This document shows, one piece after another, positions 2,028 to 9,132 of a stretch of 55,086 bases of DNA (within the stretch, counting starts at the first letter, position 1; each line of letters begins with the position of its first letter). The DNA is from a virus (Duplodnaviria; Caudoviricetes). A program made the position numbers and the translations under genes. Below the pieces are notes generated by a model, which saw only the letters and a program-made list of their open reading frames with translations, did not search any database and was not told where the DNA came from. The DNA lies in IMG/VR virus record IMGVR_UViG_3300021976_000018, positions 1-55,086 of that record, one strand, 5' to 3'.

Positions 2028-2419
2028 GGGGTGTCCTTGGGGTCGATGGTGCTGTAACGGTCGAGGAAGGCGCTGGCCCACTTGTGAGGGCAGTCGTCGG
2101 GGTGGACGCGACCCATCGGGGTGAGGCAGAACCAGCACTCGCCGTCCTGCGAGTCGTACGGGGAGCGCACCGCGGCGAGCGCACGGACGATGGCGAGCAG
2201 CTCGTCGCGCTCCTCGTTGGCGATGCGGTCCTCCTCGGCCGCCAGCTTCTTGCGCTCCTTCGCCAGGAGCAGCTGGTAGTCGAGCGCCCGCCACAGCATG
2301 CTGATGTCCCGGTAGCGCTGGCCCTCCTCGGTGGCCTCGGCTGACGTGTTGCCGTCGGTGACGTTGTCGACCAACCAGCGGCGGATGCGCTCCAGGTCTT
2401 CGTCGCTGATTCGGCTCAC
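2024..2419 (-). CDS. Hypothetical protein (coiled coil plus CxxC...H..C motif)
   Basis: GTG 2419; ECWFC...HPDDCPH. Confidence 0.6.
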   Translation of the reverse strand: MSRISDEDLERIRRWLVDNVTDGNTSAEATEEGQRYRDISMLWRALDYQLLLAKERKKLAAEEDRIANEERDELLAIVRALAAVRSPYDSQDGECWFCLTPMGRVHPDDCPHKWASAFLDRYSTIDPKDTP

Positions 2420-2578
2420 TGCTTGTCGTCTCCTGTTCGCGGGCAACCCCAGGAGGGCATGCACTGGAGGGTGGGGTCAGGCATCGGGGGCTCGCTCGTA
2501 GCGCTTGAAGGCACCCGGTCCACCGGCGGTCTCCATCGCTTTCGTGAACAAGGCGATGGATTCGTCGTCCACGCAGTC

Positions 2579-2767
2579 TCAGCCGTCCATCCAGTCGCCC
2601 ACCAGCTCGACCACATCGAACAGCGAGCCACCATCGACGGCCTTCTGGAACACCGCCATGCAGACGCTCTCGAAGCGCGTCTGCGCCTCCAGGTAGGAGC
2701 CGATCCACATCTGCGCCGCGGCTTCCGCCTTCCTGAGGGCTGCGTCGGGCTCTTCGGCGTCACCCAT
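2579..2767 (-). CDS. Hypothetical protein
   Basis: ORF track; GGAG upstream; fits the operon packing. Confidence 0.55.
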   Translation of the reverse strand: MGDAEEPDAALRKAEAAAQMWIGSYLEAQTRFESVCMAVFQKAVDGGSLFDVVELVGDWMDG

Positions 2768-2918
2768 CTGTGGTCTCCTTCGCTGCTTTGGCGTCGCGTA
2801 GGGCTTCGGTAGCTATGTCGGAGCGGGTACGGGCAGTACGGGAGGCTTCGGCTTCCAGCCACTCCCAGAGGGCTATCGGCAAGGTGAGGGACTCGCGGTG
2901 GTAGTCGAAGGCCGTCAC
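2760..2918 (-). CDS. Ribbon-helix-helix (CopG-like) DNA-binding protein
   Basis: SLTLP..LWEWLEAEA.RT.RTRSDIATEAL. Confidence 0.65.
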   Translation of the reverse strand: MTAFDYHRESLTLPIALWEWLEAEASRTARTRSDIATEALRDAKAAKETTDG

Positions 2919-3613
2919 GCCGGTGTCTTTCGTCGGTACATGTCGGCTGGTGGCTTCCCGTCGATGAGGCATTCGGCGAGACGCTGGGGGGTGATGTCGT
3001 ACTCGTGCCACCAGTGCTGGGCTTGTTCGAGGTGTTCGGTGCGTGCGTTCTTGCTGGTGGTGCGGCGCCAGCTGGATTCGTTGGTGACGGTGCCGGGCTT
3101 CTGGCGTTCGAGCTTGAGTTGGGCATAGCGCTGCCAGGTTGCGACAGGAATGTCGTCGTCCACAGGTTGTGGATTCGGTCGTGAGTTACCAGAAGACGAG
3201 AGAACAGAAGTAGTAGTCGGGGATGGGGACGATGCAGGCGACGTCACAGCGTCTGTCCCGTTGGTGTCACGGCGTGACGTCGCCCGTGACCGCCGTTTGC
3301 GCTCGGCTGCTGCTTCACGTTCAGCGATGACTTGCTGACGTGAGGGATTGAAGTCGAGGTAGTCCGGGACGTGATACCGGGCTCCATGGTCCACCCACAA
3401 CGCGACGTCGACGGCTGAGATGGTGTCAGCGATGCTTGGCTCGACACCTGCGAGCGCTGCGACTGTTGGCAGGGCACGCTTGTCGATGTAGCCGTCGGTG
3501 AGGTTGCGGGCGCACCAGCAGAGGCCGGCGATGTAGAGAGCGCGGCCATCCACGCCGGCGAGCACTGCTTTGTGGTTGGTGTGAAAGGCGTCATCGAGCT
3601 TCACCCATGCCAC
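2915..3613 (-). CDS. Phage replication initiator protein
   Basis: N-terminal MAWVKLDD.F..NHK...LY..GL.WC..NLTDG.I...DYLDFNPS...R...ERKRRSR, typical of actinophage initiators. Confidence 0.75.
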   Translation of the reverse strand: MAWVKLDDAFHTNHKAVLAGVDGRALYIAGLCWCARNLTDGYIDKRALPTVAALAGVEPSIADTISAVDVALWVDHGARYHVPDYLDFNPSRQQVIAEREAAAERKRRSRATSRRDTNGTDAVTSPASSPSPTTTSVLSSSGNSRPNPQPVDDDIPVATWQRYAQLKLERQKPGTVTNESSWRRTTSKNARTEHLEQAQHWWHEYDITPQRLAECLIDGKPPADMYRRKTPA

Positions 3614-5927: not shown

Positions 5928-6115
5928 GACGCTTCCCGTTCGGCCATCGCTCGCAGCCGGCGGGTCTCGTGGAAGATGCGGGCCCGGAGCACCTCCGGCG
6001 ACGAGTCCAACGGCACCTGCGAGACCTTCGCCCCGTGGTCGAGCAGCTCGGACCACAGGCCCAGCAGCTCCCGGGCGAGCGTCGTGTCACCCGTGTCACC
6101 CGTGTCACCCGGCAC
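5924..6115 (-). CDS. Hypothetical protein with GDT x3 N-terminal repeat
   Basis: ORF track; 9-bp tandem repeat near 6083-6110. Confidence 0.5.
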   Translation of the reverse strand: MPGDTGDTGDTTLARELLGLWSELLDHGAKVSQVPLDSSPEVLRARIFHETRRLRAMAEREAS

Positions 6116-6395
6116 GTTGCGCCATCCTTCGGACCCGGCGCAGCATGCGGCGTTCCTTCTCGGTGGCGCCCCACACGCCGTGGTCGATGTTGCGCTCCAG
6201 GGCGTACTCGAGGCACTCGGTACGGACCGGGCAGCCGGTGCACCAGTGCTCGACTACCTGGCGTTGCTTGGCGTACTCGATGGGGAACAGGGCGCCCGGT
6301 TCAGCTGTCCGACAGGACGCTCGGCGCATCCACGTGGTCGCGTCGAGGTCCAGAAGACCGACGACGGCCCGACGACGGTCACGCGGGTCAGCCAC
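6105..6395 (-). CDS. whiB: WhiB-family transcriptional regulator
   Basis: W...A.C...LFP...C..CPVR.ECL.YAL.....GVWGA.E.ERR, with four Cys and the GVWG turn. Confidence 0.93.
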   Translation of the reverse strand: MADPRDRRRAVVGLLDLDATTWMRRASCRTAEPGALFPIEYAKQRQVVEHWCTGCPVRTECLEYALERNIDHGVWGATEKERRMLRRVRRMAQRAG

Positions 6396-6567
6396 TCGCA
6401 GCGCTCCTTGCTAGGCGCCGGAGCCGACGCCGCTCGCGTTCGCTCAAGCCCCAGCGCTCACCGTCGCGGCCTCGCACGATGGTGGCCTCGTAGTCCTGGT
6501 CCCAGCGGTCGCAGAGTTCCCATGCTTCGCGCAGGGTCAGCTTGCGGCGCGGGGTCTCGGCCGTCAT
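6388..6567 (-). CDS. Hypothetical protein (59 aa)
   Basis: Translated by hand: MTAETPRRKLTLREAWELCDRWDQDYEATIVRG...; GGAGG RBS upstream. Confidence 0.55.
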   Translation of the reverse strand: MTAETPRRKLTLREAWELCDRWDQDYEATIVRGRDGERWGLSERERRRLRRLARSAASG

Positions 6568-6743
6568 GGGGTGGCCTCCGTGTCGGCTGTGAGTTCCTCT
6601 GCGGCGGCGAGCGCTCGCATGACCCGCTCGGCGGTGCTCAGGTAGCTGCCGGCGCCTTCACGGCGCAGCACGCAGCGGTTGCGGACCTTGCCGTCGGCGT
6701 ACTCGGTGATGGTGAGGTCGACGATGACGCTGATGTCAGCCAT
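6564..6743 (-). CDS. Hypothetical protein
   Basis: GGAGG RBS, ATG 6743. Confidence 0.55.
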   Translation of the reverse strand: MADISVIVDLTITEYADGKVRNRCVLRREGAGSYLSTAERVMRALAAAEELTADTEATP

Positions 6744-7029
6744 GGGTGGCCTCCGTGTCGAGGTAGTCGAGGGCGAGCTGGCCGTGTGGGAGCAAGCGGC
6801 GTCCGGTGGTGGCCTCGTAGGCGACGGCACGCCAGTCGACGTAGAAGCGGTCGATGTCGCGGCCTTCGCCGTGGCTGGCGGAGAACGGGTGGGTGACGAG
6901 CTCGGGTGGGAACGGCACCCACACGTGGTCGTGCAGCGGGAGGCCGACGCAGTCGTAGCGGGTGCAGGGCGCCCAGTCGTCGCCTCGGATGCCTGTCGCT
7001 TTGTCGTCGGGGTCGTACAGGACCATCAC
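6736..7029 (-). CDS. Hypothetical protein
   Basis: GTGA overlap with the MTase stop. Confidence 0.55.
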   Translation of the reverse strand: MMVLYDPDDKATGIRGDDWAPCTRYDCVGLPLHDHVWVPFPPELVTHPFSASHGEGRDIDRFYVDWRAVAYEATTGRRLLPHGQLALDYLDTEATHG

Positions 7030-8498
7030 GCCGGGCTCCACAGGTCGAGCGGTGCGGCGGCGAGCCTGAGGGCGGCCTTCTCGGCCATCGCCTCGTCCGC
7101 TTCGATGCCGATGGCCTTGTAGCCGGCCTCGCGGGCAGCGACGAGCGTGGAGCAGGACCCAGCGAACGGGTCGAGGACCAGGCCTGGCCGTTCGCTGAGG
7201 GCTAGAGGGCCACCACAGTTCGGACACGACCCGAGACGCCGATCATGCCGTGGCAGTGCGGGCACTGGATCGGCTTCGGCGACGGCTTGGGGATGCGATC
7301 GTGCTCCCGTTTCGGTAAGACCTTCAGGTTCCCTGGCCGGTTGTCGTCCTTGATCTCGTTGAGGTGATGCACCACCTCGTCCGTCCGGAGCGGACGTCCC
7401 AGCACCTCGGCCATCACCAGTCGATGCTCGAAGACGTAGCCCGCCTTGGTCGCCATCGGGTGACCCGGCCGGTAGAGCATCACGTAGCCGGCTTGCGTTC
7501 GCAGCGATGGCTTCCGCTTGCCGCGGCCGATCGTCGGAATCGCGCAACGACGGGAGCAGAACCTGGTCGAGTTCGCCAGTGGTTGAAACGTCGCCCCGCA
7601 CTCCTCGCAGGACTTTGGCTTCAGACGCGCCGCTTGCGCTGCGCACTCCCGCGAGCATGTCCGCTGGGACGGTCGCCCCGTGTGGTTGCGGGCGTGGAAC
7701 TGGCGTCCACAGATCGGGCAGGTCGTCTCCGGCGTCGCTCGCTGGGACGCGCTCTTGCAAGCGTTGTTGCAGAACTTCCTGGGGCCCCGCTTGCCCAGTG
7801 CTGTCGGTAGCCCGCACCACTGGCACCCTCGGTCCTCGCTCACGTCCACAGTCTATGCACTCCAGGACCGACACCACAGGTGGGCAGGCGTAGCGGATGA
7901 GCGGGTCGAGCAGCGCTACCGGCTTTTCGGTGGGGGCGATGGCCCCGCGGCGCCACATGTTGGGGACCTCGAGCACCGAGGGTATGAGCCGGGTGCCGTC
8001 ATCGACCCAGGCGCCCTGGTCGCCGATCTTGCCCATGTGGCGGGCGTGGCCGGCGCCCTGCTTGATCGAGCGGTCGCGTTCCTTGATGCCGACGTGGGTC
8101 CGGGGGGTGTCGTGGTGGATGAGGTTCCAGGCGCCCCGGTACCAGTGCAGGACATGTTCATGCACCCGTCGGAAGCGGTCGGCGGCGAAGCCGGTGCCGT
8201 TCTGCTTGCGCCACACCACGTCCTGGGAGAGGTTCCAGTAGCGGTCGAACTCCGACCCGTGGCGGAGATACATGCGCATGCTGCCGAAGCACCACATGGA
8301 GCGGGTGACGTCCGCGACCAGTGGGAGCCAGCCGTCGGGCCAGACATCCCACAGCAGCGACGTCTCACCGTAAGGGGGGTCGGTGACGCAACAGTCGGGT
8401 TCGATACCGACCCCGGGCCGCCCGAGCTCGGGCAGCACCTCGCGCATGTCCCCCAGGTACAGGGTCACCTTGTCGTCGGTGTAGTACGGGACCGTCAC
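7026..8498 (-). CDS. Beta-class N6A/N4C DNA methyltransferase with an insertion of about 230 aa
   Basis: VTLYLGD, VTDPPY, VVWRK, HE, PTEKPV.LL..LIRYACPP, then an insertion, then GLVLDPFAGS.STLVAA...GYKAIGIE. Confidence 0.9.
   Translation of the reverse strand: MTVPYYTDDKVTLYLGDMREVLPELGRPGVGIEPDCCVTDPPYGETSLLWDVWPDGWLPLVADVTRSMWCFGSMRMYLRHGSEFDRYWNLSQDVVWRKQNGTGFAADRFRRVHEHVLHWYRGAWNLIHHDTPRTHVGIKERDRSIKQGAGHARHMGKIGDQGAWVDDGTRLIPSVLEVPNMWRRGAIAPTEKPVALLDPLIRYACPPVVSVLECIDCGRERGPRVPVVRATDSTGQAGPQEVLQQRLQERVPASDAGDDLPDLWTPVPRPQPHGATVPADMLAGVRSASGASEAKVLRGVRGDVSTTGELDQVLLPSLRDSDDRPRQAEAIAANASRLRDALPAGSPDGDQGGLRLRASTGDGRGAGTSAPDGRGGASPQRDQGRQPAREPEGLTETGARSHPQAVAEADPVPALPRHDRRLGSCPNCGGPLALSERPGLVLDPFAGSCSTLVAAREAGYKAIGIEADEAMAEKAALRLAAAPLDLWSPA
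7202..7849 (-). CDS. HNH endonuclease (HNH_3 type, N-terminal CxxC repeats) nested in the +1 frame of the methyltransferase
   Basis: GYV..Y.PGHP.A...GYVFEHRLVM...LGRPL..DEVVHHLN..KDDNRP.NL; three CxxC...C(S/N)xxC units. Start is GTG 7849 or 7843. Confidence 0.9.
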   Translation of the reverse strand: MDVSEDRGCQWCGLPTALGKRGPRKFCNNACKSASQRATPETTCPICGRQFHARNHTGRPSQRTCSRECAAQAARLKPKSCEECGATFQPLANSTRFCSRRCAIPTIGRGKRKPSLRTQAGYVMLYRPGHPMATKAGYVFEHRLVMAEVLGRPLRTDEVVHHLNEIKDDNRPGNLKVLPKREHDRIPKPSPKPIQCPHCHGMIGVSGRVRTVVAL

Positions 8499-8500
8499 CG

Positions 8501-8530
8501 TTGACTCCTGCGAACAGTTGTTCGTAACCT
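8501..8530 (+). promoter_or_regulatory. SigA-type promoter with a LexA (SOS) box in the spacer
   Basis: TTGACT (8501-8506), 18 nt, TAACCT (8525-8530), 6 nt, ATG. CGAAC-AGTT-GTTCG at 8511-8524. Confidence 0.8.
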
Positions 8531-8536
8531 CGGCTC

Positions 8537-8830
8537 ATGCTGCTGTGGGAGGAGGAGCATTGGGGCGGCTCGTGGCGGGGCCACGACGGCGGCTGGGTTG
8601 CCGCCCACGTGGTGCCGGCGTCGGATGGCAGGTGGCTGCCGGTGGTCCACAACGACCGGATCGGTGACGTCACGTACGGGACCCTCGACGGGGCGAAAGC
8701 TGCGGCCGAGGCCGCGCACGCTCTGCTCCCGCCGCCCGTCCCCTACAAAGCCCCGGAGCGCTACAAGCGGCCGGTGCCCAACGCACCCATCCGGGTACCG
8801 CACCCTGGGGCCACGAAGAGGCCGCAGTGA
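8537..8830 (+). CDS. Probably SOS-inducible small protein, candidate antirepressor
   Basis: 97-aa ORF with protein-like composition, opposite to the surrounding operon, directly behind the LexA-box promoter. Confidence 0.7.
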   Translation: MLLWEEEHWGGSWRGHDGGWVAAHVVPASDGRWLPVVHNDRIGDVTYGTLDGAKAAAEAAHALLPPPVPYKAPERYKRPVPNAPIRVPHPGATKRPQ

Positions 8831-8832
8831 GG

Positions 8833-9132
8833 TCAGCACGACACCCACCGGCCCTCGGTGATGAAGCCGTGGAGCCCGCAGTCAGGGCACAGGATCGAAG
8901 GGGTGACCGTCAGCGGATCCTCGGCAACGATCGTGTGGCCATCGGCGAGGCGGAGCGCGGGGGCGCAGATGATCTGCACGCCACCGATGACCTTGCACTT
9001 GTGCTCGATCCTGCACGTGCCGTCGTCGTAGAACAGCGCCCGGACCGACGATTCTCCGGGCCAGGGGCGGGTACAGATCGAGCGGCCCCACCCGGGCTCA
9101 ACGAGGAACGCGCTCTCATGCGGCTCACTCAC
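8833..9132 (-). CDS. DUF6527-like small Cys/His protein
   Basis: TVTPSILCPDCGLHGFITEGRW. Confidence 0.65.
   Translation of the reverse strand: MSEPHESAFLVEPGWGRSICTRPWPGESSVRALFYDDGTCRIEHKCKVIGGVQIICAPALRLADGHTIVAEDPLTVTPSILCPDCGLHGFITEGRWVSC

Follow-up and report, generated by a model that had tools for sequence, protein, structure and literature searches.

Homing endonuclease genes are thought to persist in conserved genes only by way of self-splicing introns, inteins or gene splitting. What, then, is to be made of a phage DNA methyltransferase gene that holds a complete HNH endonuclease gene in another reading frame and is itself open from one end to the other? The locus in question lies in IMG/VR virus record IMGVR_UViG_3300021976_000018, which was analyzed over its full length of 55,086 bp (G+C 68%) and is referred to here as the window. 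A previous interpretation made from the letters alone, termed here the sequence-only reading, had proposed a splicing-free homing gene that keeps the host frame open and whose passenger peptide is looped out by a four-cysteine zinc site, and this core proposal is supported by every comparison run, on grounds that are those of sequence and prediction.

In the explanation considered probable as a whole, an HNH homing endonuclease gene would have inserted into a phage gene for a DNA adenine/cytosine-N methyltransferase at the turn that leads from the motif-X helix (..LIRYACPP) into the opening strand of the S-adenosylmethionine (SAM)-binding fold (GLVLDPFAGS). The endonuclease would be translated in the +1 frame from an internal start of its own; no splicing would take place, and ribosomes translating the methylase would traverse the insert in the host frame, kept stop-free by selection, to yield a 490-residue protein with a disordered passenger peptide of ~200 residues. 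Read in the host frame, the insert ends specify two knuckles, CxxC and CPxCG, each with short strands predicted beside it; the pair most likely coordinates a single zinc ion and holds the loop together at its base, letting the methylase halves meet as they do in insert-free enzymes. The ends of the element would accordingly be dual-coding, selection acting on the host frame at the junctions and on the HNH frame within the core, and the endonuclease presumably cuts insert-free alleles at the conserved site and spreads by repair, i.e. homing. The parts of the locus are listed below, with residues (aa) numbered in the host protein and all features on the minus strand.

7026–8498, minus: host open reading frame (ORF), a 490-aa beta-class N6/N4 DNA methyltransferase (PF01555) read through the insert
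7878–8498, minus: methylase N part, aa 1–207, with DPPY, a PTEKP motif and a helix ending YACPP; GC at third codon positions (GC3) 0.91
7185–7877, minus: insert, host-frame aa 208–438, 231 codons with no stop, missing from insert-free relatives
7026–7184, minus: methylase C part, aa 439–490 plus stop, with the beta-1 strand GLVLD and the SAM-binding motif I DPFAGS
7202–7849, minus: HNH_3 homing endonuclease ORF, putative from its profile match, +1 frame, 215 aa, GTG start at 7849 or 7843, TAG stop at 7202–7204
7839–7877, minus: 5' junction peptide VVSVLECIDCGRE, aa 208–220, with the first CxxC (C214 and C217)
7185–7235, minus: 3' junction peptide LGSCPNCGGPLALSERP, aa 422–438, with the CPxCG knuckle (C425 and C428), overprinted on the HNH tail SGRVRTVVAL-stop
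7850–7863, minus: candidate HNH start signals, TAGACT at 7850–7855 and GGAG at 7860–7863

The host protein matches the PF01555 (N6_N4_Mtase) profile in two stretches (E 1.5e-18, 68.1 bits against a cut-off of 26.7), the better of which places aa 35–207 on profile positions 2–181 of 221. Among the PHROGs, the DNA methyltransferase family phrog_67 matches aa 1–207 and several methyltransferase phrogs match aa 435–475, and Pfam and PHROG methyltransferase matches are confined to these two segments. Motif IV (DPPY, aa 40–43) precedes motif I (DPFAGS, aa 443–448), the order by which the beta class is recognized; the C part matches the CcrM structure 6pbd (7.3e-6), and the fold neighbors of the methylase, M.MboIIA, M.BceJIV, CcrM and M.RsrI, are all beta-class enzymes. 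The frame is free of stops from DPPY to DPFAGS, as the sequence-only reading had it, with 231 codons separating the halves at aa 1–207 and 439–490.

Those codons hold, in the +1 frame, the complete 215-aa HNH_3 ORF that had also been described; its product matches PF13392 (E 3.9e-9, 36.5 bits, gathering cut-off 24.8) and the HNH endonuclease family phrog_20891 (2.7e-24). Because 8498 minus 7849 is 649, position 1 of each HNH codon is position 2 of a methylase codon. The protein is laid out as three CxxCG..FCSxxC zinc-finger-like modules followed by an HNH core, and it possesses all 33 family-invariant residues; H142, H162, N164, N170, N174 and H183 fall in columns invariant among 17 HNH relatives. 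The C-terminal tail SGRVRTVVAL-stop is kept to the last residue among relatives of the nested type, and free-standing phage HNHs align to aa 5–182 only. The window HNH was absent from the called proteins; a scan of IMG/VR with an HNH alignment returned distant HNHs only, and a search of the PDB sequences with an HNH profile gave no match. In the HNH relatives P0121–P0141 the N-terminal DNA-binding region consists of 3–4 CxxCG-x(8-20)-FCSxxC repeats, the number varying between relatives, and one of them, P0132, is extended at its N terminus by a junk-like stretch of 130 aa, as though the HNH frame continued without a stop into the host gene upstream.

Over methylase codon positions 1, 2 and 3, the N part has GC contents of.67/.47/.91 and the C part of.72/.58/.88, against.83/.62/.55 for the insert, a pattern that shows the insert to be coding-like only in the HNH frame, over its whole length. 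Two candidate start signals for that frame are present as letters where the sequence-only reading had placed them, TAGACT with a spacing of 6 nucleotides (nt) to GTG 7843 and GGAG with one of 10 nt to GTG 7849, their role being that of candidates. The ATA codon to which that reading traced TAGACT is indeed rare, being used for 3 of the 385 isoleucines in 40 confident genes. Its further statement that the same leaderless spacing is used elsewhere in the genome was not borne out in that form: only 7 TANNNT sites stand 4–9 nt before a start with an ORF of at least 50 codons, those at 7843 and 8537 (plus strand) included, and among 40 crude first starts one has such a site at 4–9 nt and 19 have a Shine-Dalgarno-like word. 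TANNNT is rare here (0.41 per kb per strand), and a scan of 6800–8800 for consensus promoters and terminators found none. Judged from protein sequences, TAnnnT is encodable at the corresponding place in the three closest relatives, P0002–P0004, and P0004, with H-E for the R-E of the window, may have ATG in place of GTG 7843. Other routes of expression were considered and rejected. A +1 frameshift from the methylase into the HNH would encounter a TAG at 7853–7855, two codons before the HNH start, and no slippery site was seen; separate translation of the C part as the main route meets an N part that has no terminal stop, and counting further against it, the in-frame start nearest the C part is only the GTG at V412, which has no Shine-Dalgarno-like word.

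The insertion site is precise. The insert always sits between ..YACPP and GGLVLDPF.., and insert-free neighbors join YACPP straight to GGLVLDPF. A protein search returned more than 100 insert-free related proteins of ~270 aa each, and scans of IMG/VR and JGI metagenomes yielded 160 related loci, none with the insert; in 152 of these the N- and C-part matches are adjacent, and the remaining 8, which lack a C-part match at E 1e-3, represent contig ends, tandem genes or a weak C part. That the two motifs are normally adjacent, as the sequence-only reading had noted, is evident in insert-free loci and proteins alike; in one insert-free locus (L022), for example, the ORF runs CPPGG directly into TVLDIFAGSG. 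The free junction DNA reads ..TGC CCN CCN GGC GGC CTS GTC CTC GAC.., and the first 18 nt of the insert, GTG GTG TCG GTC CTG GAG, resemble a decayed copy of the post-site sequence, such that the VVSVLE at the insert start looks like a degenerate copy of the GGLVLD beyond the insertion site. A search of sequencing runs listed no RNA run with the locus and two DNA runs from one sample, possibly the source of the window, whose reads contained no joined, insert-free form, a blank that proves nothing. A 334-aa protein consisting of the N part only (P0096) was considered as a broken insert-bearer and rejected, being an insert-free methylase; it leaves the frame right after YACPGGG, through a frameshift or a sequencing error. 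A word-index search turned up no shorter proteins that contain the host-frame insert, degenerate DNA patterns for the HNH tail had 0 matches in the genome and viral contigs, and the 25 matches of a 5' junction DNA pattern in viral contigs were all due to chance.

Relatives that bear the insert exist at several depths. P0002–P0004 are close, open-frame, insert-bearing methylases, 49–57% identical to the window protein, that retain the insert, the open frame and both cysteine pairs, and the three insert lineages are deep (37–43% host-frame identity). In the relatives the HNH was judged by what their host-frame proteins allow to be encoded: by this measure, 87, 64 and 65% of the window HNH positions are encodable in the +1 frame of P0002, P0003 and P0004 (control 23%), as are 33/33, 33/33 and 31/33 of the family-invariant HNH residues. 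P0002 has an additional 9-aa insert, AVGEFEIDT, in its N part. A wider phmmer search of 1.84 billion representative proteins with the 231-aa host-frame insert recovered 61 proteins at E≤1e-3, 13 of them at ≤1e-10. All 20 family proteins scanned are PF01555 methylases (369–1164 aa) in which the insert-like stretch ends just before profile positions ~178–183, the same site. Of 60 further proteins, 58 have no host-frame stop between the 5' knuckle and the C part. The +1 frame could encode the HNH-invariant residues at 1294 of 1372 positions, where a shifted control register allows 284 of 1384; counted protein by protein, 56 of 58 family members reach at least 80%, and P0281 and P0286 look spurious. 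The insert is found in methylases that differ greatly in length and sequence, and the host-gene tree scatters the four close insert-bearers, with 4 changes in the best tree and at least 2 forced by strong branches. The family clusters derive from JGI, ENA and Logan; the members looked up come from metagenomes only and, where named, are called 'DNA modification methylase'. In GenBank phages, megablast gave no match to near DNA, and tblastn of the 490-aa protein in phages matched 7 records, over the N part only.

A feature that might account for how the methylase tolerates such an insert resides at its two ends. CIDCG occupies aa 214–218, with C214 at 7857–7859 and C217 at 7848–7850, the latter overlapping GTG 7849, and CPNCGG occupies aa 425–430, with C425 at 7224–7226 and C428 at 7215–7217; the coordinates thus place the first motif over the HNH start and the second just before the HNH stop, as had been claimed. 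In an alignment of 60 insert-bearing rows with a mean identity of 11%, the host frame is open and both pairs are conserved: C214 is kept in 58, C217 in 57, C425 in 59 and C428 in all 60, with all four present in 56, and the knuckle companions P426 and G429 are kept in 43 and 51. This conservation is on par with that of the SAM-site residues D443 (60/60), F445 (58/60) and G447 (60/60). The 10,886 residues between the knuckles contain 1.06% cysteine and six CxxC motifs. Of 64 proteins examined (the 60 of the family plus the four close members), 61 have a methylase C part, and in 60 of these a CxxC lies within 32 aa before it; in 38 proteins a CxxC follows a KP in the motif-X helix by 15–30 aa, and the majority of the remainder show a single CxxC 150–260 aa upstream. 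Comparison of the four close members shows 7 invariant columns out of 13 at either junction, against 30 of 196 for the insert core and 75 of 191 for the N part of the methylase.

The codons add a further line of evidence. Those for C425 and C428 dictate a T at the third position of HNH codons where other bases would be synonymous. These HNH codons are CGT, with a share of 10.8% among Arg codons, and ACT, with 3.5% among Thr codons, and T occupies 5.9% of third positions overall; for the relatives, T at the HNH-synonymous sites was deduced from protein sequences. The 5' pair, for its part, is positioned before or at the HNH start. We read this as indicating that the cysteine pairs are not a by-product of the HNH and that the host frame would be the selected frame at the ends of the element. 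By the criterion of conservation, the two CxxC knuckles most likely constitute a Cys4 zinc ribbon or rubredoxin-type pair, which would bind zinc. AlphaFold2, run twice, once with 119 mostly insert-free rows and once with 60 insert-bearing rows, both times gave a confident methylase core, with a predicted local distance difference test (pLDDT) score of 86–94 at aa 201–220 and 421–440. The 5' junction (pLDDT 86–89) has a predicted strand at 208–214 and the 3' junction (88–94) one at 431–438; most of the insert core scores 31–48, with values <50 over 223–320 and 343–412. Inside the insert, the prediction is therefore confident at the two junction peptides only, in keeping with the looping-out that had been proposed.

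The alternative that survives best, unlikely as it is, grants that the cysteine pairs are selected and assigns them another role, namely a DNA-binding zinc ribbon, a sensor or regulatory site, or a DNA or RNA signal of the endonuclease gene. C217 overlaps both GTG 7849 and the last T of TAGACT, residue I/V215 supplies the first T, and all four close members would allow TnnnnT there, to judge from their proteins. Beyond pLDDT, moreover, no prediction ties the knuckles together structurally, a predicted complex of the junction peptides (aa 198–240 and 404–446, with a 4-row alignment) and Zn having scored 0.11 against a mark of 0.32. Yet the residue after the second cysteine varies (G in 25, Y in 12 and D in 6 of 60), so that a start codon at this place is not general, and the 3' knuckle coincides with the final part of the HNH ORF, a place in which a start signal is unexpected. 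The knuckle-to-knuckle distance ranges over 147–314 residues (median 204), and each knuckle stands at a fixed spacing from the methylase fold, 20–22 aa downstream of the KP motif for the first and, for the second, mostly 9 or 11 aa ahead of the C part, which fits a structural role at the insertion point.

A second alternative, judged improbable and somewhat more so than the first, holds that the open frame is a by-product of GC-rich codon usage and that the invaded methylase is dead or dispensable. In the insert, host-frame position 1, which is HNH position 3, has a GC content of 0.83 against a host-frame GC3 of 0.55, and stops are scarce in the host frame because the first base of each methylase codon is an HNH third position, which is rarely T. 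The sequence-only reading had suspected as much, and the same offset in 40 confident window genes indeed shows just 0.0115 stops per codon, from which the chance of 228 open codons is about 7%; synonymous permutation of the HNH's own codons left the host frame open in 2.4% of 20000 trials. Long spurious ORFs are abundant in the window, and the methylase of the ShiLan type, discussed below, is not essential according to section 4.1 of the text of PMC11855218 drawn on here.

Several further observations count against the favored explanation or qualify it. By the estimates just given (2.4–7%), the open frame of the window alone could be due to chance and is suggestive only. There are 273 HNH relatives called as separate genes, at least 50% identical in 29 of the 120 listed, and in libraries of called ORFs alleles with host-frame stops would appear as HNH genes or small fragments. 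Two of the 60 family proteins begin within the insert and another stops shortly beyond it, perhaps at contig ends or in broken frames. The approximately unbiased (AU) test leaves a single clade of the four close insert-bearers standing (p 0.169), and horizontal spread among them is accordingly no more than possible. Finally, related methylases persist split by an antisense endonuclease gene, as in the phage KilKor; the open frame is not the sole viable state.

Against the by-product explanation stands, in the first place, the number of times the frame has stayed open, in three diverged close relatives and in ~56 further cluster representatives; under a neutral model the probability of a frame still open is ~0.22, 0.08 and 0.08 for the divergences of P0002–P0004. 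The four cysteines are kept in nearly every member while the remaining insert varies freely, D443 and G447 persist in all 60 insert-bearers, and the rare T-ending HNH codons under the cysteines are left without explanation. On this statistical evidence the open host frame appears to be selected rather than an accident of GC content, which forms part of the explanation regarded above as probable overall, and the methylase would presumably be active.

Marginally less credible again is the removal of the insert by unrecognized splicing, whether through an unusual intron that overlaps the ORF or through atypical protein splicing or cleavage that uses cysteine. A cysteine does lie near the insert start, inteins with out-of-frame endonuclease genes exist (bioRxiv 10.1101/2025.01.02.630785, as far as its text was available), and the resemblance of the insert start to the post-site sequence is a trait that section 3.1 of PMC11855218 weighs, for ShiLan, as a possible intron signature. 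The flanks of the HNH ORF within the insert, however, measure 28 nt before and 17 nt after, and with coding GC3 throughout they leave no room for a ribozyme. Rfam at E≤10 over 6500–9000 found no intron, and Pfam at E≤0.1 found no Hint, intein or other domain in the 490-aa protein. The insert begins with V and ends ..ER before P-G, such that the residues characteristic of intein ends (Cys, Ser or Ala first; His-Asn followed by Cys, Ser or Thr) are missing. The lack of an Rfam match, the lack of space and coding throughout speak against a group I intron, and the absence of a Hint family and the wrong end residues against an intein, in agreement with the sequence-only reading on both counts. A spliced insert, furthermore, would need neither an open frame nor the 3' CPxCG knuckle, and translation without splicing remains the favored course.

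That two compensating sequencing or assembly frameshifts conceal an in-frame HNH fusion has nothing for it beyond the odd arrangement and is scarcely credible, in view of the same frame relation in four independent assemblies and ~56 more clusters (JGI, ENA, Logan), of Logan contigs that reproduce 6900–8600 with 0 differences and no indel (albeit from a sample that may be the window's own source and so not independent), and of an HNH frame with the TAG at 7853–7855 ahead of its start as well as a terminal stop of its own.

How does the preferred reading, an unspliced HNH element with an open host frame and a zinc-clasped loop, relate to what is already described? In the portions of the literature drawn on here, the nearest system is the ShiLan domain, an out-of-frame HNH in methylases of cluster A1, E, F1 and J mycobacteriophages (Arsenault, Gosselin, Gogarten 2025, PMC11855218; earlier PMC9957025), whose host frame is free of stops, in which neither an intron nor an intein could be detected and for which a loop is predicted (PMC11855218). 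A splicing-free 'hidden HNH' form was proposed in 2025 from a few mycobacteriophage methylases, without a mechanism (PMC11855218); by that account the kind is already published and the window element is not categorically new. Both systems have a same-strand, out-of-frame HNH ORF that fills an insert in a PF01555 phage methylase with a stop-free host frame, both have an insert start resembling the post-site sequence, and in both the host-frame peptide is a poorly ordered predicted loop (PMC11855218). By tblastn, the window HNH (aa 80–214) matches sequences inside the annotated methylases of Mantra, Bipolar and ShiLan, in another frame, at 38–42% identity (E 1e-13); by sequence, the window and ShiLan-type HNHs are homologous.

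The differences are equally clear. The ShiLan insert lies between duplicated EPVVVARKP sequences upstream of motif X, whereas that of the window follows the motif-X helix, just before DPFxGSG, and the ShiLan HNH is read in the third frame rather than the +1 frame. The Mantra insert lacks flanking host-frame CxxC pairs, of which the window insert has two. Nine BLASTP matches are given for the ShiLan host-frame peptide (PMC11855218 Table 1), against 61 representatives for that of the window, and the chance of an open frame for ShiLan-type HNHs, computed here, is 0.017–0.053. In the text of PMC11855218 that was available, the terms 'selection' and 'GC content' do not occur, and cysteine and zinc appear only for intein splicing residues and HNH zinc fingers. 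Mantra gp64 (L001, ~1080–1500) also carries, after DPPY, an in-frame LAGLIDADG block ..WLAGLIDGEGCF.. with no intein N-terminal domain; this block and the EPVVVARKP duplication are known from PMC11855218 and PMC9957025. The arrangement recurs in Pacc40 gp60, where a second, independent hidden endonuclease ORF lies in another methylase at another position, differing from the window in that the host is a helicase-methylase fusion, the 160-aa ORF is less surely an HNH and the host-frame matches number 4 (PMC11855218). A search of the literature found no description of the window's family or of a host-frame clasp, with the supplement and GitHub pages of PMC11855218, which lay outside the search and may list cases, set apart.

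Group I intron-encoded HNH endonucleases such as I-HmuI have DNA-binding modules and target conserved sites in phage genes, and their introns need a ribozyme of at least 200 nt. The window differs in having neither room nor an Rfam signal for the ribozyme that is required there. I-HmuI is named as a structural match in Table 1 of PMC11855218, in the text available. Inteins with out-of-frame or antisense endonuclease genes likewise keep a frame open across a differently coded region; there a Hint domain removes the insert, and the window has neither a Hint domain nor the end residues (bioRxiv 10.1101/2025.01.02.630785, available text).

Related genes can also take the split form. In the Mycobacterium phage KilKor (L245), an unannotated antisense ORF of 265 aa (2408–3205, minus strand) lies between gp53, the methylase N part, and gp54/gp55, a C fragment, and splits the methylase just before ..KPLALMRWLVRLVTPPNGVVLDPF. 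The ORF carries CxxCG..FCSxxC modules as in HNH, its C-terminal part is presumably Vsr/DUF559-like, and the locus has no Rfam match. Three proteins of 335–343 aa (P0301, P0303 and P0306), which belong to the 90% cluster of the 645-aa insert-bearing P0241, end ..LRLRDDLTPEQVDQVTARLREAGINVA, the tail of KilKor gp53, and because they share this cluster one methylase lineage occurs both with a hidden HNH and as a split gene. The conserved tail LRLRDDLTPEQVDQVTARLREAGINVA might be an assembly domain. In Aeromonas phage Aeh1, too, an endonuclease gene invades a conserved gene, nrdA, without an intron or intein, and sequence of the mobile element helps the host protein assemble; in both Aeh1 and KilKor the host gene is cut into separate polypeptides, whereas the window methylase would stay a single polypeptide, its halves held by a clasp that the element encodes (PMC3045599, in the part consulted, for Aeh1).

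Three neighboring features complete the picture of the locus.

6105–6395, minus: WhiB-family transcription factor gene (PF02467, 1.7e-17)
7024–7029, minus: GTGATG, the overlap of the methylase stop with the start of the next gene, by sequence
8537–8830, plus: 97-aa ORF divergent from the methylase, GC3 0.89, with no Pfam family

The WhiB gene near the methylase indicates an actinobacterial phage or prophage. The methylase stop TGA (7026–7028) overlaps the start of the next gene (GTG 7029 or ATG 7026), whose product starts MVLYDPDD... and has no Pfam family; this overlap suggests translational coupling, a further purpose that full-length translation of the host frame may serve. In front of the divergent ORF, a TAACCT stands 6 nt upstream of the ATG, the same spacing as that from TAGACT to GTG 7843, and the ORF is a candidate leaderless gene.

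The balance tips slightly toward a wider view in which the window element would be the type member of a broadly distributed family, comprising no fewer than 56 clusters at the 50% identity level, with a third, splicing-free lifestyle and a dedicated Cys4 zinc clasp that restores the methylase fold. What the locus adds to hidden HNHs is a family of far greater size, at a second site that is precisely conserved, along with a testable structural mechanism in the form of a predicted host-frame zinc clasp encoded at the element's own ends. It would also be a clear example from nature of dual coding where selection passes from one frame to another within a single segment of DNA. For annotation, the consequence is that gene callers report one long 'DNA methylase' and overlook the endonuclease within it.

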